From: an uncultured Chloroflexia bacterium
GTDB taxonomy: Bacteria; Chloroflexota; Limnocylindria; Limnocylindrales; CSP1-4
Reading direction: 5' to 3'
Length of the DNA stretch: 64,000 nt
NCBI GenBank assembly: GCA_963763075.1
Contig: CAVXNF010000005.1
Location: 210,984-274,983, forward strand
In this document: positions 35,126 to 53,430 of the stretch, piece by piece
How the letters are laid out: every line of letters begins with the position of its first letter
How positions within the stretch are numbered: position 1 is the first letter of the stretch
The notes under the pieces: generated by a model
The model's input: only the letters and a program-made list of their open reading frames with translations
What the model was told of the DNA's origin: nothing
Databases searched by the model: none
Program-made: the position numbers and the translations under genes

Positions 35126-35987
35126 GTGGCACTCCGGGTCGCGTACACCGGCGAGCCCGGCGCGTTCGCGGAAGAGGCGGTGCTCCGGTTCTTCGCCGCG
35201 CCCGAGACCGTGACCCGCGGCTCGTTCCGGGAGGTGTTCGAGGCGGTCCGCGACGGCACCGTCGACGCGGGCGTCGTGCCGGTGGAGAGCTCGCTGCTGG
35301 GGACGATCCGCGAGAACCTCGACCTGCTGTGGTCGTTCGACCTGCCGATCGCCGGCGAGGTCTCGGTTCCCGTCCGCCTCGCGCTGCTCGGCCTGCCCGG
35401 GGAGCGGCTGGAGACGGTCGAGCGCGTGTACTCGATCGCCGCCGCGCTCGCCCAGGCGGACGAGTTCCTGCGGTCGCGCCCGTGGACGATCCAGACCACG
35501 TACAACACCGCGGGCGCGGCGAAGCAGGTCGCGGAGCGCGGGGAGCGCGGCTCGGCGGCGGTGGCCTCCGCCCGCGTCGCGCCGATCTACGGCCTCGAGG
35601 TCCTGGCCGACGACATCCAGTCCGGCACGGACAACCGGACCCGGTTCGCGGTGATCTCGCGGCCGGGCGACGAGGCGCGGATCCGGGAGGCGGCGCAGGC
35701 ACGCAGCCGTCGCCGGCCCGCCGCGGACGACCCTCGTGTTCGCCGTCCGGAACGTCCCGGGCAGCCTCCACCGATCGCTGGGCGCGTTCGCGACCCGCGG
35801 GCTCAACATGTCCCGGCTCGAGTCACGGCCGTGGACGGAGCGCGGCTCGCGCTGGGAGTACCTGTTCTGGGTGGACCTCGACGCGGACCCCGCCGAGCCC
35901 GCCTGCGCGGCCGCGCTCGCCGAGCTCGCCGACGAGACCGAGATCGTCCGGATCCTCGGCACGTTCCCGAAGGCCGCCGAGGAGTAG
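35126..35987 (+). CDS. pheA: Prephenate dehydratase (PDT domain plus C-terminal ACT domain), frameshift near 35700
   Basis: RVAYTGEPGAFAEEAV...DAGVVPVESSLLGTIRENLDLL...TRFAVISRPG; ACT: LVFAVRNVPGSLHRSLGAFATRGLNMSRLESRP... Confidence 0.8.
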
Positions 35988-36047
35988 CCGGACATGGAAC
36001 GGCGGCGCGGGCCGAAGCCGCGCGCCGCCGCGCTCGTTGGTGCGATG

Positions 36048-37639
36048 CTAGAGCCGGACGAAGGCGTCCAGGATCACGTTCGGACGCGCCCCGCTGGAGG
36101 ACACGATCCGGATGACGTGCTCGCCGTACGACGAGAACCGCCGCGCGTAGACGACCACCCTGTCGCCCGCAGTCGAAGTCGGCCATGTCGACGGTCTTCC
36201 GGAGATCGCCGTCGATGTAGACCTTGACGATGCCGAGCGTCGGATCCGTGGTCATGACGAGGCCGATCGCCCGGCCGGTGAACCGGTACCGCGCGGACGA
36301 CGCCGGTCGCATCCGACATCCTGGCCGAGCCGCCGGAGAACGCGACGTCGTTGAGCGTCGTCCAGCCGGAGCTGAACGTCGCGTACGGGCTCGTCTGCTG
36401 GGCGATCCGCGGGACGGAGCGTCGGGGTCTGCGGCCCAGGGGCCCTTGTTGTTCGCCCAGTCGACGGCGCGGACCTTGTACAGGATCGATCCGCCGGTGG
36501 CCTGCGTGATCGCCGCGTAGGTCGGCTGCCCGGAGCCGAGCAGCGTCCACGAGTCACCGCCGTTGGTGGATCGCGCGATGTCGTACTTCATGACGCCGGC
36601 GCCGCCGACATCGGACGGCGGCGGCCCAGGCCAGCTTCACCGGGATCGAGGAGCCGCTCAACGGCGCCCCGACCCATGGCGTCGCCCGCGGCGTCGTCCC
36701 GCGGGGCTTCGACCGGTCGATCCGGAGGGTGGCGGCACTCTTCGTGGCCACCGCCGGGCCGCGCGGCGACACATCGCCCGTCGACGCCACGGCTTGTGCC
36801 CGCATCGTGAGCCGGAGCGTCCCGGCGGAGCAGTTGCTGACGGTCATCGACCACGCCAGGCCGCCGTTGCTGGTCGACGGCGCGCCGATCGAGCAGTGGT
36901 CCGCCGAGCCGGTCTTCGTGAAGTCGCCCGCCGTCAGCCCGGACACGGGCTTGTCGAACAGGACCTTCCAGGCGAACGAGGACGCCCGCGTCGGGCCCTG
37001 GGGGGCGACAATCGCCACGCGCGGCGTCGACCCCATGAGGGACGTGGAGCCGTAGATCGTCGTCACGAAGTCGACGTTGCCGGACGGCGTGTAGTCGGTC
37101 CAGCAGGCGCCGGTGACGCACAGGAAGCCTTCGCCCTCGCTGTACTGGTCGGGACCACCGGCCGTGCTCGCGTGCCACTTGAGGCCCGTGTTCGTGCCCC
37201 GCAGCACGACGATGGCGAGCGTGTCGACGCCCGCGGGGGCCATGGCCGGCGCGTCGAATGAGACGGGGACCGTCGACGGGCTGCCGCTGTTCGTCGAGAT
37301 GCCCGACGTGCTCACGGTCTTCGACGCGAGCACGATGCCCGAGCTCGATGCCTGGTAGCCGGACGGCGTACCGGACGGCGCCGTCCGGATCTCCACCCGG
37401 AACGTGCCCGTGTCACCGCTCGCCCGGCGGTGCATCAGCAGGTCGACCGAGACGATCGGCCCGACCGTGTCGAAGGTCTGCGCCATCGCCGGCGCGGACC
37501 AGCTCGATCCGTCCTGGTCGTTGATCAGGAGCGCAAACGCAGCCGCTCGCGCGCTGCCCGCCATCGTGGCCAGCAGCATCGTCGCGGCCATCAAGCTCGC
37601 CAGCGCGCGTCGCCGGCCGTTCCCCGTGCGTGTCGGCAC
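36048..37639 (-). CDS. Secreted hypothetical protein with Sec signal peptide and BNR/Asp-box motif (STNGGDSW); about 3 frameshifts
   Basis: Signal peptide RTGNGRRRALASLMAATMLLATMAGSARA|AA; Asp-box ARSTNGGDSWTLL; beta-rich C-terminal domain ...RYRFTGRAIGLVMTTDPTLGIVKVYIDGDLRKTVDMADFDCGDRVVVYARRFSSYGEHVIRIVSS; GGAGGG SD. Confidence 0.55.
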
Positions 37640-37735
37640 GTTTCCCTCCAAGTGCGGCCCTGCGTTTCCCGCCTGACAGGCGCTCGGGCGGTGCGATCAT
37701 AGGCAGTCGGGACCCCCGATGACCAGCCGCTGGAG

Positions 37736-39419
37736 GTGAAGGTGGACGACGCGTTCCGCACGGAGATGGCCGCGGGCTACACGTTCGACGAGCCCGTCGT
37801 CGTGTTCGGCTCGCCGATCCAGGGCGACGAGGTCCTGTCCGAGGTCCGCGTCCAGGTGCCGCTGTCGCGCGTCAACCGCCACGGGCTCATCGCGGGTGCG
37901 ACCGGCACCGGCAAGACGAAGACCCTGCAGCTCCTCGCCGGCCAGCTGAGCGCGCACGGGGTCCCCGTGTTCGCCGTCGACGTGAAGGGCGACCTGTCGG
38001 GCGTCGGCGCGCCCGGCGACCCCGCCAACCCGGCGGTCGTGAGCCGGGTCGAGTCGATGAAGCTCACCTACGAGCCCCAGGGCCACCCGATCGAGATCCT
38101 GTCGCTCTCGGGGACCCAGGGCGCGCACGTGCGGGCGAGCGTCTCGTCGTTCGGGCCGCTGCTGCTGGGCAAGGTCCTCGACCTCAACGACACCCAGACC
38201 TCGATCCTGTCGCTCGTCTTCCGCTACTGCGACGACGAGGACCTGCCGCTGCTCGACCTCGCGGACCTGCGGACGACGCTCAAGTTCCTCGGCTCGGACG
38301 AGGGCAAGCCGGTGCTCGAGGAGCTGGGCGGCATCGCGCCGGCGAGCCTCGGGGTCATCCTGCGCGCGATCGTCACCCTCGAGCAGGAGGGTGCCGGCGA
38401 CTTCTTCGGCGAGCCCGAGTTCGATCCCGACGACCTCGTCCGCACGACCGCGGACGGCAAGGGGATCATCACGCTGCTCGAGGTCGCGGACGTCATGGAC
38501 CGCCCGCGGCTGTACTCGACGTTCGTGCTGTGGATGCTCGCCCAGCTGTACGAGACGCTGCCCGAGGTGGGCGACCTCCCGAAGCCCAAGCTCGCGTTCT
38601 TCTTCGACGAGGCGCACCTCCTGTTCGCGGATGCGTCGAAGCCGCTGATGGAGCAGATCGAGCGCACCGCGCGGCTCATCCGGTCCAAGGGCGTCGGCGT
38701 GTACTTCGTGACCCAGGCGCCGACCGACGTGCCCTCGTCCGTGCTGAGCCAGCTCGGCAACCGCGTCCAGCACGCGCTCCGCGCGTTCACGCCCGACGAC
38801 GCCGACGCGCTGCGCAAGACCGCGCCGGACGTTCCCCGTCACCACCCACTACGACGTGGAGCGGACGATCACCTCGCTGGGCATCGGCGAGGCGCTCGTG
38901 ACCGTCCTGTCGCCCAAGGGCATCCCGACCCCGCTCGCGGCGACCCGGCTCGTGCCGCCCGACTCGCGGATGGCGCCGCTCACCGCCGAGGAGCTCGCCG
39001 CGAACGTCGCCGCGTCGACGCTGGCCGGCCGCTACAACCAGTCGCTCGATCCCGAGAGCGCGCACGAGATCATCACCGCGCGGCTCGCGAACGCGAAGGC
39101 CGCCGCCGCGACGGCCGCGGTCGAGGCGACGATGCGCGACGGCGTGTCGCCGACGACCGCCGACGGGCTCGAGACGATGACGCCGGCGCAGCAGAAGCGC
39201 GAGATCGAGAAGCGGGCGAAGGAGCTGGCGGCCGCGCAGCGGGCCGCGGAGCGCGAGCGCAAGGCCCAGGTGAAGGCGGCGCAGGAGGCCGAGAAGCAGC
39301 GCCAGCGGATGCTCGAGACGTCGATCCGGACGGCGGGCAGGGTCGCGACATCGAAGGCCGGCCAGTCGATCCTGCGCGGGGTGTTCGACGTGTTCTTCGG
39401 GGGCGGCAAGAGCCGCTGA
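37736..39419 (+). CDS. DUF853-family HerA/FtsK-like P-loop ATPase (YjgR-like), one frameshift near 38830
   Basis: Walker A GATGTGKTKTLQLLAG; Walker B ...LAFFFDEAHLLF; lysine/alanine-rich coiled-coil C-terminus. Confidence 0.7.
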
Positions 39420-39503: not shown

Positions 39504-39765
39504 ATGGACCTCACGTTTGTCGGCTGGATCGTCGTCGGCCTCATCGCCGGCCTGTTCTCCGGTGTCGCTCGTCGGCGGCCGGACGGCCCGCGGCTGGATG
39601 CCCAGCCTCGTCATCGGCGTCGTCTCGGCGTTCCTCGTCGGCTGGCTGCTGACGTCGTTCCTGGGCGTGGACTCGATCACGAGCATCTGGCTCTCGGCGC
39701 TGTTCGCGGCCGGGATCGCGACCGTGCTCCGGCTGCTGCTCAAGTCGTTCTCGTTCAGCGACTGA
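39504..39765 (+). CDS. GlsB/YeaQ/YmgE-family small membrane protein, one frameshift
   Basis: MDLTFVGWIVVGLIAGLFSGV...(shift)...GGRTARGWMPSLVIGVVSAFLVGWLLTSFLGVDSITSIWLSALFAAGIATVLRLLLK. Confidence 0.65.
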
Positions 39766-39813
39766 GCCCCGCCGGGCGGCGCCGCCTTGCCGCCACGCGC
39801 TAGCCTTGCGCCC

Positions 39814-40342
39814 ATGACGCAGGGTGAGTTCGCGGCGCGCACGCTGATCGGCGAGTCGTTCGCGGGTAGCGGCGCCAACGCCGCGCACATCAACATCGTG
39901 ATCGGGCGCAAGGGCGGGCCCGTCGAGACGGCCTGGACGACGTCGCTCGCGACGCCGCGCGCCGGCCACATCCCGTTCCTCACGGTCCTCCGGCCGAACC
40001 TGCCCGTGAAGCCGATGACGCTGTTCGTCAACAAGGCGGACCTGCGCGGCGACACCCACTCGCAGCTCACCTGGGGTCCCGCGCAGGCGGGCGTCGCCGC
40101 CGGCGTCACGCAGGCCGTGGCGGACGGCGCTGATCCCGGCCGACGCGGTGGACGACGTGCTCGCGATCGTCGCGGTGTGGGTCGACTGGGCGGCGGACGA
40201 CGCCGCGCTGGTGTTCGCGAACAACAAGGTCGCGACCCACGAGGCGATCGCGGCCGCGGTCCGCCTGGAGCCCAGGATCGAGGACGTGCGTGGCCGAGGT
40301 CGGGCACCCGTGGAACGCCTCGTACCACGAGCACCGGAACTA
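39814..40342 (+). CDS. fae: Formaldehyde-activating enzyme (Fae) family homolog, 1-2 frameshifts
   Basis: Alignable by eye to Methylorubrum Fae as I recall it (not checked here): IGESFAGSGANAAHINIVIGRKGGPVETAW / FLTVLRPNLPVKPMTLFVNKA / WGPAQAGVAAGVTQAVADG(L)IPADAVDDVLAIVAVWVDWAADDAALVFANN. Confidence 0.7.
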
Positions 40343-40392
40343 GCCGGGCGCACCGCGTCCGCGACCTAGCCGCCGAACCCGCCCTCCCGGCC

Positions 40393-41505
40393 ATGCAGAT
40401 CACCCGGATCCGGATCGCCCGCCTCGAGCACCCGCTCGATCCGCCGTTCGACGCCGCATGGGATCCCGTGCCGCGGACGTCCTTCGCGGCGACGCTGGTC
40501 GAGGTCGAGACCGACGAGGGCGTGACCGGGATCGGCTCGGGCGACACGATGGACGGGTTCGCGGCGTTCGAGCACCTGTTCATCGGGCAGGACCCGCTCC
40601 GGATCGCGCGCCACGTCCGCGCGCTCGAGACGATCGGCTTCCACGCCGGCCGGTACTGGCCGCTCGAGGCCGCCCTGTGGGATCTCGCGGGCAAGGTGAC
40701 CGGCCAGCCGGTCGCGGTCCTGTTCGGCGGCGCGACCGATGCGCTGCCCGCGTATGCCTCGACCGGGGAGCGGCGCCCACCGGCCGAGCGGGCGGCCTCC
40801 GCCGTCGCGATCGCCGACGCCGGGTTCCGGGCGATGAAGATCCGGATCGACCGCACCCGGATCGACGAGGGGCTCGAGACCGTCCGCGCGGTGCGGGACG
40901 CCGTCGGCGACCGGCTCGAGCTCATGGTCGACCTCAACGCCGGCTGGCGGATGGCCGGCGACACGACGCCGTCGCTCGACGTGGTGGCGGCGCGCCGCGC
41001 GGCCGACGCCCTCGCCGAGCTCGGCGTCCTGTGGCTCGAGGAGCCGCTCGACGGCGCCGACCTGCGAGGTCACGCCGCGCTCCGGGCGGGCGCCCGGATC
41101 CGGATCGCGGGCGGCGAGATGACCCGCACGATGGCGGAGCTGCTCGCCGCGCTCGACGCGGACGCGTTCGACGTCTACCAGCCGGACGTGGTGCTCGCGG
41201 TCGGGATGCTCCGGGCGCGGACGATCGGCGAGCTCGCCCTGGCGCGGAACCGCTGGTTCACGCCGCACACCTGGACCAACGGGATCGGGCTGCTGGCGAA
41301 CCTCCACGTCGCGGCGGGCGTCGGCGGCGGTCCGTACCTCGAGGTCCCGTACGACCCGCCCGGCTGGACGCCCGAGCGACGGGACTTCGTGCTCGCCGCG
41401 CCCGTCGCGGTGGGGCCCGACGGGATGCTGCGGGTGCCGCCGGTGCCGGGCCTCGGCATCGAGCTGTCCCGCGAGGCTCGCGCCGCGCTCGACGCCACGC
41501 GCTAG
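40393..41505 (+). CDS. Mandelate racemase/muconate lactonizing enzyme (enolase superfamily) protein
   Basis: N-terminal capping domain followed by a barrel domain with metal ligands (..MVDLNAGW.., ..WLEEPL.., ..DVYQPDV..); intact. Confidence 0.75.
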   Translation: MQITRIRIARLEHPLDPPFDAAWDPVPRTSFAATLVEVETDEGVTGIGSGDTMDGFAAFEHLFIGQDPLRIARHVRALETIGFHAGRYWPLEAALWDLAGKVTGQPVAVLFGGATDALPAYASTGERRPPAERAASAVAIADAGFRAMKIRIDRTRIDEGLETVRAVRDAVGDRLELMVDLNAGWRMAGDTTPSLDVVAARRAADALAELGVLWLEEPLDGADLRGHAALRAGARIRIAGGEMTRTMAELLAALDADAFDVYQPDVVLAVGMLRARTIGELALARNRWFTPHTWTNGIGLLANLHVAAGVGGGPYLEVPYDPPGWTPERRDFVLAAPVAVGPDGMLRVPPVPGLGIELSREARAALDATR

Positions 41506-41517
41506 GCTGGCCGGACC

Positions 41518-43018
41518 GTGACCGACACCGCGACGCACGCCGACTGGCTCGACCGCGCCCGTGCGGTCCGGCCGCATGCCCGCCCGTTCATCGACGGCGA
41601 CTACGTCACGCCGCTCGACGGACGTCCCGTGCCCGACACGACGCCGCGCGACGGATCCGTCATCGCGGAGGTCGAGACCGCGGGCGAGCGCGACGTCGAC
41701 CGGGCCGTGCGGGCGGCGCGCGCGGCGTTCGAGGACGGCCGCTGGGCGGACCGCTCACCCGTCGCCCGCAAGCGGATCCTGCTCCGGTTCGCGGACCTCG
41801 TCCGCGAGCACGCCGACGAGCTCGCCCTGCTCGAGAGCCTCGACGTGGGCCACCCGATCGCGGACGCCACCGGCGTCGACGTGCCGGGTGCCGCGAACTG
41901 CCTCCAGTGGTACGCCGAGGCGGCCGACAAGCAGTACGGGGAGATCGGGCCGACCGGGCCGGACGCGCTGTCGCTCGTGACCCGCGAGCCGCTGGGCGTC
42001 GTGGCCGCGGTGGTGCCCTGGAACTACCCGCTGATCATCTCCGCCTGGAAGCTCGGCCCGGCGCTCGCGACCGGGAACTCGGTGATCCTCAAGCCCGCCA
42101 GCCAGTCCCCGCTGACGGCGCTCCGGCTCGCGTCGCTCGCGGCGGAGGCGGGCCTGCCGGACGGCGTCTTCAACGTGCTGCCCGGCCCGGGCGCCGTCGT
42201 CGGCGAGGCGCTGGCGCGCCACCCGGGCGTCGACAAGCTCGCGTTCACGGGCTCGATCGGGACCGGCCGCCGCCTCCTCCACGCGAGCGCCGACTCGAAC
42301 CTCAAGCCGGTCCAGCTGGAGCTCGGCGGCAAGAGCCCGCAGCTCGTCCTCGCCGACGCCCCGGACCTCGATGCCGCGGTCGAGGCGGTGGGGTGGGGGA
42401 TCTTCTACAACGCCGGCCAGACCTGCAACGCCGGCTCGCGGGTCCTCGTGCAGCGCTCGATCAAGGACGCGTTCCTCGAGCGGCTCGTCGCGTTCGCGGA
42501 GGGCCTCGTCGCCGGCGGACCCGCTCGATCCGGCCACGCGGTTCGGGTCGCTCGTCGGCGCGGAGCACCTCGAGACCGTGCTCGGCTACGTCGAGCTCGG
42601 GCGGCGCGAGGGTGCGCGCGTCGTGACGGGCGGCGACCGGGCGCTGGCCGAGACCGGTGGCGCCTACCTCCCGCCGACGATCCTCGACGGCGTCACGAAC
42701 GACATGCGCGTCGCCCGCGAGGAGATCTTCGGGCCCGTGCTCGCCGTCCTCGAGTTCGATGACCCGGACGAGGCGGTCGCGCTCGCCAACGACACCGACT
42801 ACGGGCTCGCGGCGGCGGTCTGGACCTCGGACGTGCGCCTTGCCCACCGGCTGTCGCGCCGGCTGCGGGCGGGCGTCGTGTGGGTGAACACGTTCGACGC
42901 GGCCGACGTGACGGTCCCGTTCGGCGGGTTCAAGCAGTCGGGATCGGGGCGCGACAAGAGCCTCCACGCGCTCGACGGCTACACGCAGCTCAAGACGACC
43001 TGGATGGACCTCTCGTGA
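41518..43018 (+). CDS. NAD(P)-dependent aldehyde dehydrogenase, one frameshift near 42515
   Basis: VVPWNYPL...ELGGKSPQLV (catalytic Glu)...GQTCNAGSR (catalytic Cys)...EEIFGPVLAV... Confidence 0.85.
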
Positions 43019-43947
43019 ACGGCGCGTGGCCGTCCGGCGGTGAGCGGCCGGTCGTCGGGTTCATCGGGCTCGGGCGGATGGGCCAGCCGATGGCGTCGAA
43101 CGTGCTCCGCGCGGGCTTCGAGCTCGTCGCGTTCGACGTCCGCGGCGAGGCGCTCGAGCCGCTCGTCGAGTCCGGCGCACGGGTCGCCGAGAGCGCGCCC
43201 GGCCTGGCGGCGATGGTCGACGTCCTGATCACGATGCTCCCGGGGCCGCCGCAGGTCGAGGCCGTGATGCTCGGACCGGGTGGCGCGTTCCAGGCGCTCC
43301 GCGAGGGCGCGGTGTGGATCGACATGTCCACGTCCACGCCCGCCGCGGGCAGGACGGCGGCCGACGACGGGACCCCGCGCGGCGTCGCCGTCATCGACGC
43401 GCCGGTCGCGGGCATGGTCAAGGGCGCCACGAGCGGCACGCTCCAGGTGTTCGTCGGTGGCGACGCGGCCGACGTCGAGCGCGTCCGCCCGGTGCTCGAC
43501 GCGATGGGTGACCCGGAGCGGGTGGTCCACGTCGGGCCGCGCGGCGCGGGGTACGCCGTGAAGCTGTGCCTCAACCTCCTGTGGTTCATCCACGCGGCGG
43601 CCGCGGCCGAGGTGCTGGTGCTGGGCGCGAAGGCGGGCGTCGAGGTCGGGACCCTGCGGCGGGCGCTCGTGTCGGGTCCCGCCGGCTCGGTGCTGCTGGA
43701 GCGCGACATCGACGGCGTGTTCGAGGGCGACTACGACGAGAGCTTCACGCTCGACCTCGTGACCAAGGACCTCGGGCTGGCGGTGGACCTCGGGCGCGAT
43801 CTCGGCGTGCCGCTGGAGCTCAGCGCGCTCGTCGAGCAGCTCCACCGCCGCGCGCGGGCGCTGTACGGGGACCGGGCCGGCGAGCTGTCGGCGGTGCGGC
43901 TGGTGGAGGAGGCGGCGGGGATCAAGCTGCGGCTCGGCGAGCCGTGA
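43015..43947 (+). CDS. 3-hydroxyisobutyrate/2-hydroxy-3-oxopropionate dehydrogenase family NAD(P)-dependent reductase
   Basis: VGFIGLGRMGQPMASNVLRAG (Rossmann fold)...DAPVAGMVKGATSGTL...; the GTG start overlaps the ALDH stop. Confidence 0.8.
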   Translation: MNGAWPSGGERPVVGFIGLGRMGQPMASNVLRAGFELVAFDVRGEALEPLVESGARVAESAPGLAAMVDVLITMLPGPPQVEAVMLGPGGAFQALREGAVWIDMSTSTPAAGRTAADDGTPRGVAVIDAPVAGMVKGATSGTLQVFVGGDAADVERVRPVLDAMGDPERVVHVGPRGAGYAVKLCLNLLWFIHAAAAAEVLVLGAKAGVEVGTLRRALVSGPAGSVLLERDIDGVFEGDYDESFTLDLVTKDLGLAVDLGRDLGVPLELSALVEQLHRRARALYGDRAGELSAVRLVEEAAGIKLRLGEP

Positions 43948-45133
43948 GCGCGGTCGCCCACGCCACGCTCGACATCCCGCTGCGGGACCGGATCCTGTAC
44001 GGCCGCGGCCGGATCGTCGGAGCTGCCCCACCTCGTCCGCGAGCTGGGCGGGCGGCACGCGTTCGTCGTCACGGACCCGGGCGTGGCCCGGGCCGGCGTC
44101 GCGGCTCGCGTGCGCGAGGTGCTCGAGGCCGGCGGCATCACCACGCATGTCCACGCCGAGGTGGAGCCGAACCCGGGCACCGCCTCGATCCTCCGCGGCA
44201 GCCACGCGCTCGCCCTGTTCGGGACGACGCAGTCGGTCGTCGTGGCGGTCGGTGGCGGGTCGTCGATGGACTCGGCCAAGGCGATCTCGCTCCACGCGAT
44301 CAACGGCGGTGACGTGCTGGCGCTCGGGTACCACCGGGAGGAGCTGCTGCCCGGCCTGCCGCTGATCGCCGTGCCGACGACCGCCGGGACCGGCGCCGAG
44401 ACGAACACCTACGGCGTGATCACGGACGAGGCGGCGGGCCGCAAGGGGTACGTCGGCCACCCGTCGGTCCAGCCACGGGTCGCGATCCTCGACCCGGAGC
44501 TCACCGTCGGCATGCCGCCCGCGGTCACGGCGGCGACCGGGCGTCGACGCGATGACCCATTCGCTCGAGAGCCTCCTGTCGCGCAACCCCAACCCGTTCG
44601 CCGAGGGCATGGCGCTCCAGGTGATCCGGACGGTCGCCTCGTGGCTGCCGGTCGCGGTCGACGACGGGTCGCACATGGAGGCGCGCGGACAGCTGCTCCT
44701 CGCGTCGCATCTCGCGGGGCTCGGGCAGGCGAGCGGGACGGGCGTCGGGCTCGTGCACGCGATCGGGCATGCGCTGGGGACGCGCGGGCGGCTGCCCCAC
44801 GGGACGGCGCTCGCCGCGGTCCTCCCGGAGGTCCTGGCGTTCTACCTCGAGCACGAGGGGCTGCGGGACCGCGAGCTCGCCCTCGTCGGCGTCGCGCTCG
44901 GCGCGGCCTCGCCCGCGGATCCCTGGCCCGACGCCGCGCGGGCGGGGATCGATGCCCTCGATGCGCTCCTCCGACGCGTGGGCCAGCGTCCGACGCTCGC
45001 GGCGCTCGGCGTCGACGAGGCGCTGATCCCCGTCATCGCCCTCGACGCGGTCGACGACGCGGCCATCGCCAACAGCCCGCGCCTGCCCGACCAGGCACAG
45101 GTCGAGGCCATCCTGCGGGCCGTCGCAGCCTGA
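43944..45133 (+). CDS. Iron-containing (group III) alcohol dehydrogenase (FucO/lactaldehyde-reductase-like), 2 frameshifts
   Basis: ...AVGGGSSMDSAKAISL...GTGAETNTYGVITD...GLVHAIGHALG...; start overlaps the upstream stop. Confidence 0.8.
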
Positions 45134-45144
45134 TTCCGCCGACC

Positions 45145-45164
45145 CTGCCCTAGAATCAGGGCAG
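45145..45164. promoter_or_regulatory. Inverted repeat CTGCCCT-N6-AGGGCAG between the Fe-ADH and the second ALDH gene
   Basis: 7-bp perfect inverted repeat in a 90-nt intergenic spacer; no T tract. Confidence 0.3.
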
Positions 45165-45223
45165 CGTCGCCCGACAGGCGATCCCGCCTCGCATCCGACC
45201 GCACGCACACCCAGGAGCCACCG

Positions 45224-46670
45224 ATGGCAACCGTCGCCGGCGTCAAGCCGCATCCGATCTACCTCGCCGGCTCGTGGGTCGACTCGCCCGAGATCCTCGA
45301 GATCGAGAACCCGGCCCGCCCGGGCGAGCTCGCCGGTGCCACGTACCTGGCGACCGAGGCGCAGTACGAGCAGGCGGTCGAGGCCGCGGTCAAGGCGTTC
45401 GAGGTCACGCGCGTCATGCCCGCGTACGAGCGCGGCCGGATCCTGCGCGAGGTGAGCGCCGGCATCAAGGCCCGGCGCGAGGAGCTGGGCGCGTTGATCG
45501 CCGCCGAGGCGGGCAAGCCGATCCGCGACGCGCTGACCGAGGTGGACCGCGCGACCCTGACGTTCCGGCTCGGCGCGGAGGAAGCCGAGCGCCAGTACGG
45601 CGAGGTCATCCCGCTCGACCTGATGGCGTCGTCGAAGGACCGGGTCGGGCATCACCCGCCGGTTCCCGATCGGCCCGATCGCCGGCATCAGCCCGTTCAA
45701 CTTCCCGCTCAACCTCGCGGCGCACAAGGTGGCGCCGGCGATCGCCTCGGGCAACCCGATCGTGCTCAAGCCGCCGTCCAAGGACCCGCTCGTGATGCTC
45801 GCCATCGCGGAGATCCTCGACGCGGCGGGGATCCCCGAGGGCGCCGTGAGCATCCTGCCGATGAGCCGCGAGCTGGGCGACCGGATGGTGAGCGACGAGC
45901 GGTTCAAGCTGCTCACGTTCACGGGCTCGCCGTCGGTCGGCTGGCGGATGAAGGAGCGGGCCGGCAAGAAGAAGGTCGTGCTCGAGCTGGGCGGCAACGC
46001 CGGCGTCATCGTCGACAAGAGCGCCGACCTCGACTGGGCGGTGAAGCGGACCCTCGTCGGCGCCTTCGCCTACAGCGGGCAGGTGTGCATCAGCGTCCAG
46101 CGGATGTTCATCCACGAGGACGTGTGGGACGCGTTCATGGAGCGCTTCGTCGCGGGCGCCAAGGCGCTCGTGCTGGGCGACCCGGCCGATCCCACCACCG
46201 ACGTCGGCCCGATGGTCGACGCCAAGGCGGCCGCCCGGACCCAGGCCTGGGTCGACGAGGCGAAGGCGCTCGGCGGCACGGTGCTCGCCGGCGGCACCGC
46301 CGACGGCACGTTCTTCCCGCCCACCGTGCTGACCGACGTCCCGGTCACGGCCCAGGTGTGCTCCAACGAGGCGTTCGCCCCGGTCGTCGTCGCGTTCCCG
46401 TTCCGCGAGATCGACGACGCGATCGCCCAGGTCAACGACAGCTTCTTCGGGCTCCAGACCGGCGTGTTCACCTCCGACCTCGGGGCCGCCTGGACGAGCT
46501 TCAACGAGCTCGAGGTGGGCGGCGTCATCGTCAACGACATCCCGACCTACCGGATCGACAACATGCCCTACGGCGGGGTCAAGGACTCGGGCCTCGGCCG
46601 GGAGGGCATCCGCTGGGCGATCGAGGACATGACCGAGATCCGGATCATGGTCCTCGCCTGGCCCCAGTAG
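45224..46670 (+). CDS. NAD(P)-dependent aldehyde dehydrogenase (second copy), one frameshift near 45650
   Basis: ...FNFPL...ELGGNAGVIV...GQVCISVQR...; AGGAG SD. Confidence 0.85.
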
Positions 46671-46706: not shown

Positions 46707-48010
46707 CTACTCTGCGGCGTCTGCGGTGGCCGCTGTCGGGACCGGCAGGCGTGGCTCCGGCACCTCTTCCAGCAACCCGTGCTCCACGAGCTGCTCAGCC
46801 ACGCGCTGGAGCTCCATCACCGGCACCCCGATGATGTCGCCGATCCCGACCAGGTCGTGCGTTCCGTCCGCGTACGCGAGGAGGTCCATGGTCGTCCGAA
46901 CCGCTCCGTAGCTGGATGTGGTGCCGAGCGTCGGATAGAGGCCTCGGCCGCCGAGGTGCGGCTCGCCGAGGCTCGTCGACCGGTACGTCCGGTTGCCCTC
47001 CAGGACCTCCAGGCAGTCGCGCAGGATGGCGTAGCCGCCCTCGAGCCCGGCGGGCGTGACGACCGTCAGGTCGTCCAGCGACGTGTGGTACTCGGGATAC
47101 TCGTGATACTTGGTGCGCATCACGCTCACGACGGGCAGGTCGATGCCCGGGCTGCAGTACTGCCGCTCGTCGCTGCCGCGGTCGAGGAACGAGTAGCGGA
47201 CGAAATCCGGATGCCTGGCCTTGAGGGTGTGGAGGGCGACCCGGTCCGCGAGCGTGCCGCCGTTCCTGGAAGGCAGGAAGGAGTACGCCCGGTCATCGCC
47301 GACGCAGGTCACGTTGAAGCCCGCCACCACGTTGGCCTTCAGGGTGTCGAGGTGGCGTGACAGGTAGACCAGCGAGCCGATGGTCTCGGGGATGAAGACC
47401 AGGCGGTAGGTGTAGTGGCGTGGCCGGCTGGCGATCCACTTCGCGAGCCACGTCGTGACCACCGGGCCGGAGAGCTCGTTGTTGGCCATCGACGGATGGC
47501 AGACGTAGGTGGACAGGAACACCTCGCTCGGCGTGGCGCCGGGAATGACGAGCTCGCCGTAGGTGAGGGAGCCGTCCTTGAGCTCGCTGTCGATCACGAC
47601 CCGGTACTGGCCGTCCTGAGGCGCTGCCGCTGGGCGTGCGACAGGCAGAAGCCCCACCGCCGCTCGTAGTAGGAGGTGACGTACGGGATCGCGGTGGGCT
47701 GGTCGACCAGCGAGTGCAGGTGCGGCTGGAGCTCGGCCAGCGACAGGGTCGCGTCGACGGGGACCGAGTAGCCGACGACGTGCAGGTTGTTCTGCTGGAA
47801 GTCGACGATCCGGTCGCCGTGCTCGTCGAGGATGTAGGCATCCCGGATGGTCCACTCGGGGGGCACGGTCCAGTCGAACGCACGGGTGCCGGTGGGTACC
47901 TCGTGGATCTCCAGGGGGAGGTGCTCGCCGAGGATGCGGAGCGTCTCGCGCACGCCGTCCCCGGTGATGCTCCGGGTGATCGGGAAGAGGCGCCGCGCGA
48001 GCGCGTGCAT
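46707..48010 (-). CDS. DUF4910/DUF2172 aminopeptidase-like (M28-fold) domain protein, one frameshift near 47630
   Basis: Recalled as a family often found in glycan loci (from memory, not checked against a database): ...[12 protein letters not shown]...VVGYSVPV...; ...[15 protein letters not shown]...; terminates convergently 36 nt from the ALDH stop. Confidence 0.5.
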
Positions 48011-48066
48011 CGCCGCGCCGGGCGCTTCATCGGCGTCCGCCACGCCGTCGGCATCCGCGCGAAGCC

Positions 48067-49131
48067 CCTCAGAATTCGTCCATCGCGCACGTCTTCCTGG
48101 GCGCGGTTGTAGTCCTCGTGACGGCCGACGTCCTGCCAGTACTCGATGATCGGGTAGCCCACCACGACCTGGCCCTCGTCCAGCAGGCGCCGGATGAGGT
48201 CGGTCATGTCGAAGCGTCGGCCGGCCGGGATGAAGTCCCAGGCGCCGGGCTCGAGCAGGTAGATGCCGGCGTTCACGAGGAGGCGGATGCGCGGCTTCTC
48301 GGTCAGGTCGGTGACGCGAGCGTCGTCGCATTCCACGACCCCGAATGGGACCTCGACCTCGTAGGTGCGAACGCCCACCGTCAGCGTCGCGGCGTGCTTC
48401 CGGTGAAAGCGCAGCATCTTCTGGTACGAGACCCGGGTCAGGATGTCGCCGTTGATCACCAGGAACGGCCCGGTCGGACGCGGGATCAGCCGGAGGCCGC
48501 CCGCCGTGCCCATCGGCTCATCCTCGGTGGCGTAGCTGATGCGGACCCCGAATGCCTCGCCGTCGCCGAAGTGGCCGACGATGGTGTCGGGCAGGTAGTG
48601 GGTGGTGAGGTGGACCTCGCTGATCCCGGCCTCGCGCAGCTGGTCGATCGTGCGCTCCAGCATCGGCCGCTCGCCCACCGGCAGCATGGGCTTGGGGACG
48701 GTCTCCGTCAGCGGCAGGAGGCGGGTGCCGAAGCCGCCGGCCATGACGACGGCCGACAGGTCCCCGGGCACATCGGCGACGAGGTTCTTGCGGAGCAGGA
48801 AGTCGATCAGGACGCCGGCTTCGTCGACAACCGGCAGGTGGTTGATGTCGTGCTGCAGCATCAGCTGCAGCGCCTCGGCCGGTTCGATGGGCGCGCGCGC
48901 GACGACGGGATCCCGGGTCGCGATGGAGCCGCACGGGTCGGCCAGCGACACCTTGTGCAGGACCGCGCGGCGAATGTCACCGTCGGTGAGGAGTCCCGCG
49001 ACCTGCCGATCCGGATGGCACAGGACGAGGCCGCCGGTCCCGGCCATGTCCAGCTGGGAGATGGCGTCGGCGATGGAGAGCTCCGGCGGCGCGACGACGG
49101 CCTCAAGAGTGTCCGGGCGCTCGTCGTCCAC
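48067..49131 (-). CDS. Tandem-CBS-domain plus sugar-phosphate nucleotidyltransferase fusion (PtmE-like), frameshift near the 3' end
   Basis: CBS pair (...[13 protein letters not shown]...[25 protein letters not shown]) followed by an NTP-transferase domain ([32 protein letters not shown]...INGDIL...); 3' end approximate. Confidence 0.7.
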
Positions 49132-49133
49132 GA

Positions 49134-49622
49134 TCAGGACCCGTGGCTGGCCGCGACGGCGGCCGACGGGTCGTTGAGGACGCGGCGACTGGCGGCGCCC
49201 GAGCCGGTCTCGCGGATCACGCCCTGGTAGTGGTCGTAGACGTTGTGGTAGCCGATGTCGCGACGCCTCGGGTTGAGGTCGTAGTCCACGTGATCGACGC
49301 AGAACCAGTTGTAGACCCAGCCCTGCCCCTCGGAATCGACGGTCTGCTGCCGGAACGCCGGCGACATGCACGACTCGAGCATCCCGTCGATCTTGTCCCA
49401 GGTGTCGTTGTAGCCCAGCAGGTGCGGGTCCACGACCTTGCGCACCGCCTGCTCGAGGCCGCCCAGGTCGACCTCGCCCGCCTGCAGCTGCCGGAGCAGC
49501 GCGACGCTGGGCTCGAGATCGATCCCGAAGATGGCCTTGAGGCGTTCGAAGGTCGCCTCCACCGATTCGTGGAGCGGTCCCTCCGTATCCACGCAATGGA
49601 CGACGTAGACCGGGCGCGCCAT
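49134..49622 (-). CDS. Hypothetical protein (162 aa) inside the nonulosonic-acid module
   Basis: MARPVYVVHCVDTEGPLHESVEATFERLKAIFG...; no family recognised; start and stop tightly packed between neighbouring genes. Confidence 0.4.
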   Translation of the reverse strand: MARPVYVVHCVDTEGPLHESVEATFERLKAIFGIDLEPSVALLRQLQAGEVDLGGLEQAVRKVVDPHLLGYNDTWDKIDGMLESCMSPAFRQQTVDSEGQGWVYNWFCVDHVDYDLNPRRRDIGYHNVYDHYQGVIRETGSGAASRRVLNDPSAAVAASHGS

Positions 49623-49652
49623 GGTGATCCTCGTGGCAGGGAGAGGATGAAT

Positions 49653-50706
49653 CTAGCGCAGGTGCTCCCAGCGGAGCACCTGGTCCTCGGCGAGGTCCGC
49701 GGCCAGCTCGCGGCCGACGGCATACGGGAGCTCGTCGGGACCGATCCCGGTTCCCGGACGCTTCGCATCCAGGTCCGCCTCGGTGAGGACGTGTCCGGCC
49801 GGCAGCGCGGTCCGCGTGACCAGGCTCCGCCGGAACTGGCGGCGCTTGACGATCTCGGCCTCCGACAGCATCCGGCGCGTGCTGCCCAGCGCCTCGTGGA
49901 TGATGCGCCCGTCCTCGACGACGGCCCGCAGCACCGCGGGATCGGACGAGATGGCGTGATCCCAGCCCTCCATCTCCCGGTCGAGGGTGAAGTGCTTCTC
50001 GATGAAGCATGCGCCCAGGGCGATGGCGGCGAGCGGGATCGCCGTCCCCAGGGTGTGGTCGCTGAAGCCGACGGGAACATCGAAGGCGCGGCGCAGGGTC
50101 TCGAGGTTGCGCAGGTGGACGGTGGACGGCGCCGCCGGATAGAGGGAGACGCAGTGGAGCAGGATGATCTCCTCGTTGCCCTGGGCGCGCACGGTATCCA
50201 TGGCTCGCTCGATCTCGCCCAGGGTGGCCATCCCCGTCGAGATCACGACGGGCTTGCCCGTCCGGGCGACATGGGCCAGGAGCGGCAGGTTGGTGACGTC
50301 CATCGAGGCGATCTTGATGAACGGGACGTCCAGTCCGGCGAGCAGGTCCGCCTCCGCCGGGGCGAACGCGCTGGAGGAGAAGGCGATTCCACGCTCCCGG
50401 GCGTGGTCGCGGGCGACGACGTGCTGCTCGGGCGTGAGCTGGTAGGCGCGCACCATCTCGCGGAGCGACCCGAAGTGCTTCTTCTTGTCCGAGTAGCTGG
50501 GATTCCGCTCGTATTCCTCGTTCGCGATGAGCGACGTCTCAGCTCCACGACTGGAACTTGACCGCGTTGGCGCCCGCCTCCGCTGCGGCGTCGATCAGCT
50601 GCAGGCAGAGATCCATGTCGCCGTTGTGGTTGGAGCCGACCTCGGCGACGATGTAGGGCGGGTTGTCGCCGCCCACGGCGACGCTTCCCAGGTTGACGGG
50701 TCTCAC
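49653..50706 (-). CDS. N-acylneuraminate-type nonulosonic acid synthase (NeuB/LegI/PseI family), one frameshift near 50545
   Basis: PYIVAEVGSNHNGDMDLCLQLIDAAAEAGANAVKFQ...IKIASMDVTN...VISTGMATLGEI... plus C-terminal SAF domain; GAAGGAG SD. Confidence 0.8.
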
Positions 50707-50789
50707 GTTGGCTCCTTCGGGGTGGTCCACTGGGATCGCAGGGGCGGGTGGGCGACGGACGCCCACCAGAGGAGGGGCGGAGGCGCCGC

Positions 50790-51621
50790 GTTCAGCGCCC
50801 GGACATAGCGGGACGAGTTCGGCCGGGTCCTCGACGACGCGCTGGTCGAAGGCCGCGACATCGGCGGCGGCTTCGCGGACCTGCGTCGCTCGGGCCGGCA
50901 GCGCCCCCGCCGGCAGGCCGTCCAGCACCAGCCGGAAGTGCTCGCGGACCAGCGCCGTGTCGGCCCGCACGCGCTCCGCCGTGAACGGCGACCGGATTCT
51001 GGCCATGTTTGCGCCGTGCTGGCGATAGTCCATTCGTGGCGTCGGATCGAAGGCCAGCCGTGCGCCCTGCAGCCAGGCCATCGTGATCAGGTACCAGTCC
51101 ACCAGGGCGGCCGCGGCCGGGATCGGGAGGCAGGCTCGCAGCACGTCGGACCGGTAGGCCGTGTTCGAGAGCCCGAACGCGTTGGTGCGGGGCAGGGTGG
51201 ATTCGGTCTCCCCTTCGCCCGGCGTCGCGAGCGACAGCCCCAGCGGCTGTCCAGCCTCGTCGACCAGGCGCAGGCCGCAGGCGGCGACATCGGCGCCTTC
51301 CAGCCAGGCGCGTGCCGCAGCGACGCGATCCGGGTGCAGGAGGTCGTCGCTGTCGACGAGGACCACCGCCTCGTAGCGGTCGGCGATCCGCGCCAGCGCC
51401 TGCTGGCGCACCTGGGCGGGCGTGAACCCCGGTTCGGCGACGACGAAGGTCGCGGCCGGCCGAGTCCCCAGCTGCGCCGTGACCGCCGTCTCGGTCAGCC
51501 CGTCCAGGCTGATCCAGAGATCGAAGTCGCGGTCGGCCTGTGCCTGGACCGACGCGTACCACGCGTCAAGAAAGCGGGCGGCACCGGGGTAGACGGCGGT
51601 GTAGAGGGCAATCGCGCTCAT
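50790..51621 (-). CDS. GT2-like (GT-A fold) glycosyltransferase, frameshift(s); 3' end approximate
   Basis: IALYTAVYPGAARFLDAWYASVQAQADRDFDLWISLDG (GT2 N-terminal pattern); DSDD (DxD-like); ATGA overlap with the upstream gene. Confidence 0.5.
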
Positions 51622-52314
51622 GAACGCCCCATCAGCGCGTCTGCCAGCCGCCAGTCGTCCTCGGTGTCGATGTCGATCGCATGCGTCCAGTCGATCTCCC
51701 AGCCGGTCCTGCCGGCAAGGTGGAACGTCCCCGCGCGACGCAGGGCGTCCGTCCTGGCCCACCAGACGGCTCCCGTGGGGCAGAAGAGCTCGGGAAGGTC
51801 CTGGCTGCGCTCGTCGCATCGCATCCGGGAAGAGGGGGTCCAGCGAACCGTCCGCCGCCCGGCGCATCGCCCACCAGGGGCTCTGCCAGCCGTACCGCGC
51901 GACCGAGATCTGCGCCTCGGCCGGCCGTTCGGTGAACTGGCGATGGCTGGCCACCACGTCGTCGGCCGTGCGCAGCGGACAGTTCGGCATCAGCTGGCAG
52001 ACCTCGAGGTACGCCTCTCCGGCCTCCTCCAGGCGATCCACGACGTCGATCGTCGCCCGCGAGACGGGCGTGATGTCATCGGCCAGGGCGGGGGCTCGAA
52101 GGAACGGAACCTCGGCGCCCAGGGCCCGGGCCACGGCGGCAATCTCGGCATCGTCGGTCGACACCACGACCCGGGCGAAGAGGCCGCTGCCCAGCGCGGC
52201 CTCGACCGAGTAGGCGAGCAGCGGCCGGCCATGCATCTCGCGGATGTTCTTGCGCGGTACCCGCCGCGATCCGCCGCGGGCGGGGATCACCGCGAGGGCG
52301 CCGCCGGCGCTCAT
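51618..52314 (-). CDS. CMP-nonulosonic acid synthetase (acylneuraminate cytidylyltransferase family, NeuA/LegF/PseF-like), one frameshift
   Basis: LAVIPARGGSRRVPRKNIREMHGRPLLAYSVEAALGSGLFARVVVSTDDAEIAAVARALGAEVPFLR...; C-terminus in another frame. Confidence 0.75.
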
Positions 52315-52981: not shown

Positions 52982-53430
52982 GGCCCCAGCATCGCGCAGT
53001 CGCGGGCGCCGCGCCACGGATTCGAACGTCGGGTGGGTCATGCGCTCGCCAGCGCGGTGCGTCACGCTGCCTCGACGAAACGGTGTCCCCGCATGTGGCT
53101 CCGTCGGAACGGGTCTGAAGGCGGACCGGCTCGTCCGCATGCGAGCCGGCGAGGACCCTGTCGCATATAGTGCCCACAGGATCGGGTCGCAGGGTGATGC
53201 ATCCCGCTGCGTCGGACGACCGTCTGCGCGGACGGCACCGCTCGCCTCGTTCGGGGGCCGCGTGATCAAGGGAGAGACGTGACATCCTGGTTGGCCGCTG
53301 TGTGCCGCGAGCGGGACGGGCGTGAGGTTCGTCGTTCGTCGGCAGATCCCTCCCGGCGCCCGCTCGTCCATACGTCTCGTCGGCCTCGAGTCGTCGGCGC
53401 GTCGCGAGCCGACCCGCGGGCGGCGCGCCC

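Follow-up and report, generated by a model that had tools for sequence, protein, structure and literature searches.

The locus described here raises the question of what a homologue of the formaldehyde-activating enzyme (Fae), whose gene serves as a marker for tetrahydromethanopterin (H4MPT)-linked methylotrophy in metagenomes, does at the head of a cluster of dehydrogenase genes in an uncultured Chloroflexota bacterium (order Limnocylindrales). The cluster occupies positions 39814-46670 on the + strand of the 64,000-nt stretch of contig CAVXNF010000005.1 (assembly GCA_963763075.1) that was analysed as a whole (hereafter, the window), and extends from the fae ATG (39814) to the final base of the stop codon of its last gene (46670). 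The six families and the gene order that had been proposed from the letters alone (hereafter, the sequence-only reading) were backed by Pfam, which placed on the + strand, in succession, Fae (PF08714), MR_MLE_N and MR_MLE_C, Aldedh, NAD_binding_2 and NAD_binding_11, Fe-ADH and ADH_Fe_C, and a further Aldedh, i.e. fae, an enolase-superfamily (MR/MLE) gene (hereafter MLE), an aldehyde dehydrogenase (ALDH1), a beta-hydroxyacid dehydrogenase (HIBADH), an iron-containing alcohol dehydrogenase (FeADH) and a second aldehyde dehydrogenase (ALDH2). The arrangement of Fae, MLE and dehydrogenases goes far beyond what chance would produce: the independent contigs L001 and L002 carry all six genes intact and in identical order (intact copies having 80–90% identity), the Fae-MLE pair was present in 61 of 82 GTDB/metagenome loci, and the Fae–MLE core recurs in Streptomyces, Amycolatopsis, Rubrobacterales and Gaiellaceae. 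The coupling of Fae to aldehyde- and alcohol-handling enzymes noticed in the sequence-only reading is thus evolutionarily conserved, and we tentatively favour the view that the operon is a variant, equipped with Fae, of a module for the catabolism of quaternary/N-methyl amines, and that Fae may trap formaldehyde in it.

The evidence that carries this view comes largely from searches that started with MLE. When metagenomes were scanned with an alignment of MLE orthologues, 80 loci (64-76% identity) were recovered, and Fae was situated immediately 5' of MLE in 21 of the 69 testable ones (~30%), for which reason an obligate Fae-MLE pair was rejected and Fae is to be seen as an accessory of the MLE module. 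The Fae-less loci recurrently harbored, divergent to MLE and ALDH1, an OpuAC-type glycine-betaine-binding protein with two permeases and an ATPase, or else a Dpp-like ABC system; in such loci MLE and ALDH1 were succeeded by an MttB-family methyltransferase (PF06253; non-Pyl type, 324/525 bits, paired values here and below being score and cutoff) and by a DAO-FAO_M-GCV_T protein of the dimethylglycine/sarcosine-dehydrogenase type (hereafter, DMGDH) with a folate-binding domain. In the MLE tree the Limnocylindria clade of the window is sister to this Fae-less betaine-type clade, one member of which (L130) proved to be a hybrid, with an OpuAC transporter, IclR, Fae, MLE, ALDH1 and HIBADH. Among the loci with sufficient flanks, MttB/DMGDH genes were present in none of the 59 with Fae and in 8 of the 14 without it (Fisher p 2e-7, a value that ignores shared ancestry and is drawn from only 14 Fae-less loci), Fe-ADH in 31/59 and 1/14, HIBADH in 27/59 and 0/14, and ALDH1 in 26/59 and 7/14, respectively. 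It is on account of the sister clade, the L130 hybrid, the MttB/DMGDH complementarity, the betaine aldehyde dehydrogenase (BADH) and GbsB models that rank second for two of the partner enzymes (see below), and the flanks of the Rubrobacteraceae version (amino-acid permease, agmatinase and class-III aminotransferase) that an amine/betaine theme is proposed. We infer that the operon belongs to a wider module built on one orthologous MLE and a PuuC/BADH-like aldehyde dehydrogenase, with a choline-, betaine- or amino-aldehyde-type compound as substrate class. Separately, we observed loci in which the gene after MLE resembled histidine ammonia-lyase but was divergent (147/524 bits), or else encoded a genuine HutU urocanase (L124, L139, L148, L160 and L142, L147, L149, L158), neighbours that would fit the catabolism of histidine betaine (hercynine) or of ergothioneine-type compounds.

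The first gene of the cluster (39814..40343, +; 175 aa once two inserted bases are removed, PF08714 being split over two frames) encodes a genuine member of the Fae family, as the sequence-only reading had held. The corrected protein aligned with Fae of Methylorubrum extorquens (PDB 1y5y, E 4.5e-32) over residues 9-159, essentially the entire domain, and an intact orthologue of 90% identity surpassed the cutoff of the NCBI Fae model TIGR03126 (162.3 bits vs 118.05). We take His22 to be the proposed acid catalyst, and Leu53, Phe84 and Phe119 of the M. extorquens enzyme to sandwich the pterin, roles that were reportedly assigned to these residues in the Fae structure paper of Acharya et al. from 2005. 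His22 was invariant in 82/82 members of the clade to which the window protein belongs, and the pterin-clamp positions were occupied in these 82 members by V/L/M (53), Trp (84) and Trp (119). In total, five changes relative to M. extorquens Fae were fixed across the 82 sequences (Asp24->Asn, Leu52->Phe, Phe84->Trp, His89->Ala and Phe119->Trp). When 1.84 billion representatives were searched exhaustively, the family proved to be small (904 representatives at E<=1e-3, 435 at E<=1e-10), and 74 near-full-length ones displayed two signature types: H-D-F-F, as in M. extorquens Fae and the long fusion forms, and H-N-W-W, as in the window. The two types split into deep sister clades in a neighbour-joining distance tree of 71 representatives, the long fusion forms falling in the canonical one; about one third of the near-full-length representatives examined belong to the separate N/W/W clade, a few derived members of which are devoid of the signature. 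The window homologue, which carries Asn24/Trp84/Ala89/Trp119 in place of the canonical His22-Asp24...Phe84...Phe119 arrangement, is therefore, as judged from its residues, a family member of a non-canonical clade that keeps the catalytic His; it is no 'true Fae' if the term is taken narrowly, and no obviously dead paralogue either.

In comparison with Fae of M. extorquens AM1 (1Y5Y/1Y60), the window protein shares the fold family, TIGR03126 membership, His22 and hydrophobic or aromatic residues at the clamp positions 53/84/119, but it derives from a deep sister clade in Chloroflexota and Actinomycetota, is tied to an enolase-superfamily gene, and has no H4MPT genes in its annotated neighbourhoods. 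No H4MPT-pathway gene was recognised among the conserved-neighbour representatives drawn from ~80 GTDB loci (10-kb flanks), among the annotated neighbours on several metagenome contigs or in the annotated parts of the window, nor was any found next to Fae in the scanned neighbourhoods of Binatia/Deltaproteobacteria, Acidimicrobiia, Gaiellaceae and Streptomyces. The sequence-only reading had proposed that a lack of H4MPT genes, combined with placement in a non-catalytic Fae-like clade, would speak against its interpretation; the homologue does lie outside the canonical clade and among annotated neighbours devoid of H4MPT genes, but its clade is not obviously non-catalytic. In the literature, 'Actinomycetes, Chloroflexi' are merely listed among the holders of H4MPT genes (Chistoserdova 2016), and the Fae2/Fae3 paralogues have no assigned role even in methylotrophs. 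A precedent for linking Fae, physically or genetically, with a Mg-dependent enzyme by which formaldehyde is made or used via an enediolate-type intermediate is offered by the archaeal bifunctional Fae-Hps (NF009833), from which the system described here differs in that the partner is a separately encoded enolase-superfamily protein and Fae belongs to the other clade (NF009833 score of 121 vs a 274-bit cutoff).

The N/W/W clade was found in three contexts, namely the MLE operon, a 2-oxoglutarate (2OG)-Fe(II) oxygenase pairing in Acidimicrobiia, and a 1-Cys peroxiredoxin / Macro / GST neighbourhood in Binatia. We argue that the clade points to formaldehyde because of the 2OG-Fe(II) oxygenase of Acidimicrobiia, the zinc alcohol dehydrogenases adjoining Fae in Gaiellaceae (which are class-III-ADH/formaldehyde-dehydrogenase-like), and a methanol dehydrogenase structure as nearest relative of FeADH. 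In Acidimicrobiia (L031, L033, L066, L073-L081) the N/W/W-clade fae is co-transcribed with a HalD-like 2OG-Fe(II) oxygenase gene (4-nt overlap in L031), and the pair is flanked, in a conserved arrangement, by the genes for cytochrome bc1 (qcrCAB) on one side and those for cytochrome oxidase (cta) on the other.

The enolase-superfamily partner (40393..41505, +; 370 aa, no frame break; MR_MLE_N and MR_MLE_C) displays an active site of the MR-subgroup type, with three carboxylate metal ligands (D/E/E) and a His-Asp dyad recognised in the motifs vDlN, lEEP, aGGE, qPD and pHtW by alignment to 4ggb, 5olc and 3ozm. The metal-ligand and dyad motifs were invariant in 12 orthologues and conserved in 62; the orthologues are very closely knit as a family and share many invariant motifs, among which are four tryptophans specific to it. 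In place of K-x-K the protein has K-I-R (K-x-R being kept across the 62 orthologues, and 3bjs likewise having K-L-R); the second Lys of K-x-K is the general base of two-base racemases. Its best structural relative was 4ggb (end-to-end alignment, E 5e-37, ~131 bits), which we take to be the galactarolactone cycloisomerase (Gci) of A. tumefaciens, and its best family matches were L-talarate/galactarate dehydratase and galactonate dehydratase, L-fuconate dehydratase structures being matched at E ~1e-12 only. Against the sugar-acid dehydratase equivalogs of NCBIfam it scored 111/500 (the best), 98/311 and 67/393 bits. A muconate-cycloisomerase/aromatic reading of MLE together with the Amidohydro_2 gene that follows it in Gaiellaceae was also considered and rejected (muconate model 62/335, active site of MR type).

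The remaining partners are dehydrogenases of well-populated families. ALDH1 (41518..43018, +; ~499 aa, Aldedh in two frames) is PuuC/KauB/BADH-like, with PuuC (598/850) and then BADH (532.9/668.6) as best NCBIfam models and the amino-aldehyde dehydrogenases 4lih and 6b4r (KauB) as nearest PDB entries. HIBADH (43015..43947, +; GTG start, no frame break, NAD_binding_2 and NAD_binding_11) matched best the 2-hydroxy-3-oxopropionate reductase model (221/397) and the structures 3cky and 1vpd, its nearest relatives being 2-(hydroxymethyl)glutarate dehydrogenase and tartronate-semialdehyde reductase. FeADH (43944..45133, +; GTG start, Fe-ADH and ADH_Fe_C in different frames) is a group-III iron-containing alcohol dehydrogenase for which lactaldehyde reductase (260/523) was the best model and the choline dehydrogenase GbsB (245.9/550) the second, and for which the NAD-dependent methanol dehydrogenase 8zrl (212 bits) was the nearest structure, ahead of FucO (189 bits). 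ALDH2 (45224..46670, +; Aldedh in two frames) is ALDH21/SSADH/lactaldehyde-dehydrogenase-like (Methanocaldococcus-type lactaldehyde dehydrogenase model 463/650; nearest PDB entries 5kf0 and 5mz5, ALDH21).

On the assumption that the operon does serve quaternary or N-methylated amines, FeADH and ALDH1 could convert an amino-alcohol via the amino-aldehyde into a betaine or amino acid, following the logic of GbsB/GbsA (the order and direction of these steps being presumed); MLE would then abstract the alpha-proton of the resulting carboxylate, leading to epimerisation or beta-elimination; HIBADH and ALDH2 would channel a further hydroxy or semialdehyde intermediate towards a central metabolite; and Fae would condense formaldehyde, presumably released from the N-methyl groups, with a reduced pterin carrier of a putative kind, feeding one-carbon (C1) metabolism and avoiding poisoning. 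In the sister module, devoid of Fae, Fe-ADH and HIBADH, the C1 units would be handled by the MttB-family methyltransferase and the DMGDH-type oxidase with its folate (GcvT) domain. Choline, glycine betaine, dimethylglycine and sarcosine catabolism are known formaldehyde sources (bioRxiv 10.1101/2023.12.12.567942), and in the proline-betaine (hpbD) cluster of Paracoccus, where demethylases are present, demethylation yields formaldehyde, and formaldehyde detoxification genes are induced, as is the adjacent gene for a formaldehyde-dehydrogenase-like alcohol dehydrogenase (PMC3950512). The likeness to the HpbD system lies in a proton-abstracting enzyme acting on a betaine carboxylate and clustered with betaine transport and N-demethylation, with hpbM (the formaldehyde-dehydrogenase-like alcohol dehydrogenase, betaine-induced) adjoining hpbD; this logic is matched within the MLE family by OpuAC, MttB and DMGDH in the sister clade and by Fae or class-III-like alcohol dehydrogenases in the Fae-bearing versions. 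MLE is, however, no orthologue of HpbD (no HpbD structure was among the 60 listed of 68 PDB matches at E<=1e-10, and the active site is K-x-R with a His-Asp dyad), formaldehyde would be handled by Fae and not by glutathione-dependent enzymes, and the window cluster has no Rieske or flavin demethylase.

Two further known systems bear on the comparison. MttB-superfamily methyltransferases (MtgB, MtyB, MtcB, MtpB) and GcvT-bearing oxidases of the DMGDH/sarcosine-dehydrogenase type (PMC8604678, PMC13080624) have counterparts flanking the closest Fae-less MLE-ALDH1 orthologues, which is why the substrate class is proposed; these genes are missing from the window and from all 59 Fae-bearing loci, and the window version possesses Fae, Fe-ADH, HIBADH and a second aldehyde dehydrogenase instead. 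The conversion of choline via betaine aldehyde to glycine betaine by GbsB/GbsA employs the same two families (group-III Fe-ADH and aldehyde dehydrogenase) within one operon; both models nevertheless scored below cutoff here, FeADH being slightly closer to methanol dehydrogenase/FucO and ALDH1 to PuuC/KauB. The formaldehyde-linked catabolic or detoxification role put forward in the sequence-only reading persists as the most reasonable one, but the sugar-acid/deoxy-sugar route that it favoured is less supported than quaternary/N-methyl-amine catabolism (MLE sister clade with OpuAC, MttB and DMGDH).

Several observations weigh against the amine reading, in addition to the limits of the co-occurrence counts given above. 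Neither a demethylase or oxygenase that would generate formaldehyde nor a betaine transporter was found in the window cluster or within 10 kb in Limnocylindria-type loci; the transporter and N-demethylase context pertains to the sister clade (OpuAC, MttB, DMGDH), and L130 unites OpuAC with Fae, but the window cluster has neither the transporter nor a demethylase, and demethylase genes are missing from the Fae-bearing clusters generally. None of the five partner enzymes reached a curated NCBIfam equivalog cutoff, so that all substrate assignments are by analogy. The nearest characterised relatives of MLE are acid-sugar dehydratases or a lactone cycloisomerase and not HpbD, and its K-x-R motif lacks the second lysine base of a two-base racemase; judged from these residues, the single-base active site would fit beta-elimination better than racemisation. 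Moreover, the lineages differ in what accompanies the core (Gaiellaceae have Amidohydro_2 and PALP, L051 has GFO/IDH/MocA and xylose-isomerase-like genes, and L002 and L013 have acyl-CoA dehydrogenase), and different substrates are therefore possible in different lineages.

The same features of MLE form the starting point of the sugar-acid alternative, which we consider rather improbable: the operon would perform non-phosphorylative oxidation of sugar acids, deoxy-sugars or short polyols, with MLE as an acid-sugar dehydratase or lactone cycloisomerase, the dehydrogenases processing an aldehyde (lactaldehyde, glycolaldehyde or a semialdehyde), and Fae scavenging by-product formaldehyde (e.g. 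where a C4 or branched sugar acid gives rise to 4-hydroxy-2-oxobutanoate and this undergoes retro-aldol cleavage). The best MLE matches (L-talarate/galactarate dehydratase, galactonate dehydratase and 4ggb) speak for it, as does a single-base (His-Asp) active site suited to dehydration, and so do the top-ranking lactaldehyde reductase (FeADH) and lactaldehyde dehydrogenase (ALDH2) models, both below cutoff; yet the MLE scores stay far under their equivalog cutoffs, ALDH1 is nearest to amino-aldehyde dehydrogenases, and the closest MLE relatives beyond the Fae-bearing clade reside in betaine-type and not in sugar clusters. Neighbouring genes lend it some further weight, in that MLE is followed by Amidohydro_2 in Gaiellaceae (as Gli accompanies Gci) and preceded by medium-chain dehydrogenases/reductases, L051 has its GFO/IDH/MocA and xylose-isomerase-like genes, and the Streptomyces loci possess a Sugar_tr-type major facilitator superfamily (MFS) transporter and IclR; in the window cluster itself, on the other hand, no sugar dehydrogenase, lactonase, 2-keto-3-deoxy-acid aldolase or dehydratase was present. 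The oxidative hexuronate pathway of Agrobacterium, for which Gci and the amidohydrolase Gli have been described (PMC6353982), resembles the locus in that the Gci-like 4ggb is the best structural relative of MLE and Gaiellaceae pair MLE with Amidohydro_2, but the match amounts to ~131 bits only and no set of uronate dehydrogenase, KdgD and KGSADH is present. A known fuconate/rhamnonate cluster, which the sequence-only reading had named as a finding that would speak against it, is contradicted by the finding that no fuconate or rhamnonate equivalog was reached and that the companion genes are absent from the cluster.

Alternatively, and in our estimation less probably still, Fae, FeADH and an aldehyde dehydrogenase could constitute a small methanol/C1-alcohol oxidation and formaldehyde-handling unit, recruited beside an unrelated MLE-ALDH1 module, in which FeADH would be an NAD-dependent methanol dehydrogenase, Fae would activate the formaldehyde, and the aldehyde dehydrogenase or downstream pterin enzymes would oxidise it. 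The nearest solved relatives of FeADH are indeed NAD(P)-dependent methanol dehydrogenases (8zrl, 8zwd), Fe-ADH co-varies with Fae in the counts given above, and enzymes resembling NDMA-dependent or class-III alcohol dehydrogenases adjoin Fae in Gaiellaceae. The margin of FeADH over FucO is small, however, and the NDMA-methanol model was matched at 90/625; the adjacency of Fae and MLE is much tighter than that of Fae and FeADH (Gaiellaceae have Fae-MLE without Fe-ADH), and no further methylotrophy genes were recognised among the annotated genes of the window or the loci.

Building on the methylated-amine reading, one may go further and suppose that the N24/W84/W119 clade is a second type of Fae, which would use tetrahydrofolate or another non-methanopterin carrier in bacteria without an H4MPT pathway (Streptomyces, Gaiellaceae, Limnocylindria), would replace the folate (GcvT) domain of DMGDH-type demethylases, and would have as its partner a new member of the enolase superfamily, whose substrate would be a quaternary-amine carboxylate (epimerised, or subjected to beta-elimination of the amine or hydroxyl), the two together constituting an undescribed methylated-amine route in abundant soil lineages. 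We regard this extended proposal as possible but unlikely as it stands; if true, an enzyme for the condensation of formaldehyde with folate would fill a long-recognised gap (it is an old question whether this condensation is enzyme-catalysed). If the clade uses another carrier, or detoxifies formaldehyde during the breakdown of methylated amines, counts of fae in soil surveys would overstate H4MPT-linked methylotrophy. Both core proteins come from known superfamilies. In the literature searched, no description of the cluster was found, in line with its having been called undescribed in the sequence-only reading, and nothing usable was found on Fae in Streptomyces, Gaiella, Rubrobacter or Limnocylindria or on Fae active-site residues; within that literature, the N24/W84/W119 clade appears to be undescribed, as do its occurrence across Actinomycetota and Chloroflexota, the conserved link with a single orthologue group of the enolase superfamily, and its mutual exclusion with folate-domain demethylases. 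The MLE partner family, tightly conserved across metagenomes (64-76% identity) and abundant in soils, represents a well-defined target for function discovery, and the presence of the cluster in cultured, genetically tractable Streptomyces renders the question directly testable.

Whether the operon can be discussed as a functional unit depends on its integrity, as the raw sequence does not present it intact. With a window G+C of 70-75%, the raw lists of open reading frames (ORFs) consist mostly of spurious frames, and the coding phase was consequently traced by third-position GC (GC3) profiling and three-frame translation, which revealed phase changes within genes; the gene map was made by searching the window, frame by frame, with the intact L001 orthologues (tblastn). 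Four of the six operon genes were found to be broken by six single-base changes (at ~40128 and ~40289 in fae, ~42507 in ALDH1, ~44017 and ~44539 in FeADH, and ~45650 in ALDH2), all of which were resolved at nucleotide level as insertions, and MLE and HIBADH are intact. In the case of fae, the tblastn segments fall in three frames (39814-40125, 40127-40288 and 40287-40340), and the raw ORF 39787-41505 is chimeric, joining the N-terminal part of Fae to an out-of-frame stretch and the MLE gene. The full-length alignment of the first ORF with Fae that had been claimed from the sequence alone does not hold for the raw frame, which is broken twice, the whole domain aligning only after removal of two bases. 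The corrected 175-aa protein matches an intact entry of the database (P0001) at 98% identity, and ten more intact clusters were found at 87-94% identity. Any ORF-based reading of the window requires frameshift-tolerant methods.

We find it very improbable that the cluster is decaying and without current function, its six frameshifts being real mutations, and pseudogenisation was rejected. What lends this idea some credit is the density of breaks, which reaches ~0.9/kb within the operon (six in 6.9 kb) vs a crude window-wide ~0.3/kb, and the existence of an 8-kb stretch (25.5-33.7 kb, carrying ilv/leu genes) free of frame junctions. It is opposed by the distribution of the insertions, all six of which occur in the window alone and in no relative (those of fae were confirmed as private against L003, L001, L043, L005 and L002), not even in L043, whose identity to the window is 96-97% across 13 kb; L043 (96.5% identity) and L006, both long-read Microflora Danica metagenome-assembled genomes (MAGs), bear private insertions of their own at different sites. 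Furthermore, the correct frame on the flanks of every break retains a GC3 >0.9, is stop-free and is 80-93% identical to its orthologues, and breaks also strike genes throughout the window: a crude GC3-phase scan indicated ~18 frame junctions across the 64 kb (e.g. 38826-38857, 39567, 14600, 35700, 47620 and 48060), and genes for HerA, a small upstream protein, prephenate dehydratase and an LLM oxidoreductase are split outside the operon. The operon frameshifts are assembly errors and not gene decay, and the cluster is to be treated as functional in nature because the breaks are private single-base insertions and intact relatives exist. As a side observation, the HerA/DUF87 gene 5' of the cluster in L002 (8316-9991) was called as two genes (301 and 256 aa), which suggests indel errors in that contig too.

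The six genes most likely form a co-transcribed catabolic operon that is intact in nature. The overlapping start and stop codons that the sequence-only reading had ascribed to the cluster are seen, as GTGA, where ALDH1 meets HIBADH (43015-18) and where HIBADH meets FeADH (43944-47), but not at the three remaining junctions, which have spacers of 49 (fae/MLE), 12 (MLE/ALDH1) and 90 nt (FeADH/ALDH2). A promoter/terminator scan of the operon region yielded no usable signals in this sequence of 72-75% GC. The FeADH-ALDH2 spacer (45134-45223), which the terminator scan passed over, holds a 7-bp inverted repeat (CTGCCCT...AGGGCAG) with no T-tail. Directly 5' of fae, a gene for a small hydrophobic protein (39504..39765, +; ~86 aa, frameshift at ~39567), placed by tblastn with the 86-aa ORF of L001, is kept across Limnocylindria-type loci, and its product matched no Pfam or NCBIfam family.

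With regard to the host, the actinobacterial, F420/mycothiol-type context assumed from the sequence alone was not borne out. All named relatives of the acetolactate synthase of the window (85-91% identity) are Chloroflexota / Ca. Limnocylindrales, and four projects, independently of one another, assigned the loci syntenic with the window (ilv/leu genes ... HerA, small ORF, six-gene cluster) to Limnocylindrales, Chloroflexia or Chloroflexota. The mycothiol part of the assumption goes back to a GNAT protein with a 35-bit match to MshD (cutoff of 163 bits), its tandem-GNAT region lying downstream in the same ORF as the LLM oxidoreductase (13068-14985, -) and resembling MshD weakly. An LLM-class F420-type oxidoreductase is indeed encoded in this region (break at ~14600, the halves matching TIGR03560 positions 4-105 and 105-222), but F420 is not specific to actinobacteria. 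One syntenic contig, L043 (CAVTBS010000003.1, MFD02360.bin.3.536), is labelled 'uncultured Gaiellaceae', shares 84-91% protein identity with Limnocylindrales/Chloroflexia MAGs, and is probably mis-binned or mislabelled, its Gaiellaceae label being an outlier; true Gaiellaceae loci are ~63% identical and have a different context. Beyond Limnocylindria, the gene order varies by lineage: cultured Streptomyces (e.g. S. iranensis, S. malaysiensis) and Amycolatopsis have Fae, MLE, ALDH1, HIBADH and FeADH in one direction and, divergent to them, IclR, an aldehyde dehydrogenase and an MFS transporter; Rubrobacterales have Fae, MLE, ALDH1, FeADH and an aldehyde dehydrogenase; and Gaiellaceae have two zinc alcohol dehydrogenases, Fae, MLE, Amidohydro_2 and, in some cases, PALP. 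Among the genomes with the cluster are Streptomyces iranensis DSM 41954 (CP136563), Streptomyces sp. NBC_01092 (CP108659) and single-contig genomes of the Limnocylindria type of 2.6-2.7 Mb.

The surroundings of the operon are in part variable. An aconitase-family segment was recognised at 23094-23840. A stretch of ~1.7 kb (35984-37685) is present in the window and absent from the 96.5%-identical L043; it encodes a signal-peptide-bearing protein without Pfam family (36701-37663, -, continuing to ~36154 past a frame break; ~320+ aa), which takes the place of a DUF4332 gene in L001, L002 and L014. The downstream flank of the operon is a glycan island of lower GC (46755-64000; 66-70%), oriented convergently to the operon, with genes for DUF4910+HTH_47, NTP_transferase+CBS, NeuB+SAF (nonulosonic-acid synthase), a hexapeptide acetyltransferase/CMP-sugar synthetase and a DegT aminotransferase, and, as recognised by eye, a sugar transferase, a tyrosine kinase of the Wzz type and glycosyltransferases. 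In L002, acyl-CoA dehydrogenase genes are found in place of this island, indicating that the downstream flank is variable.

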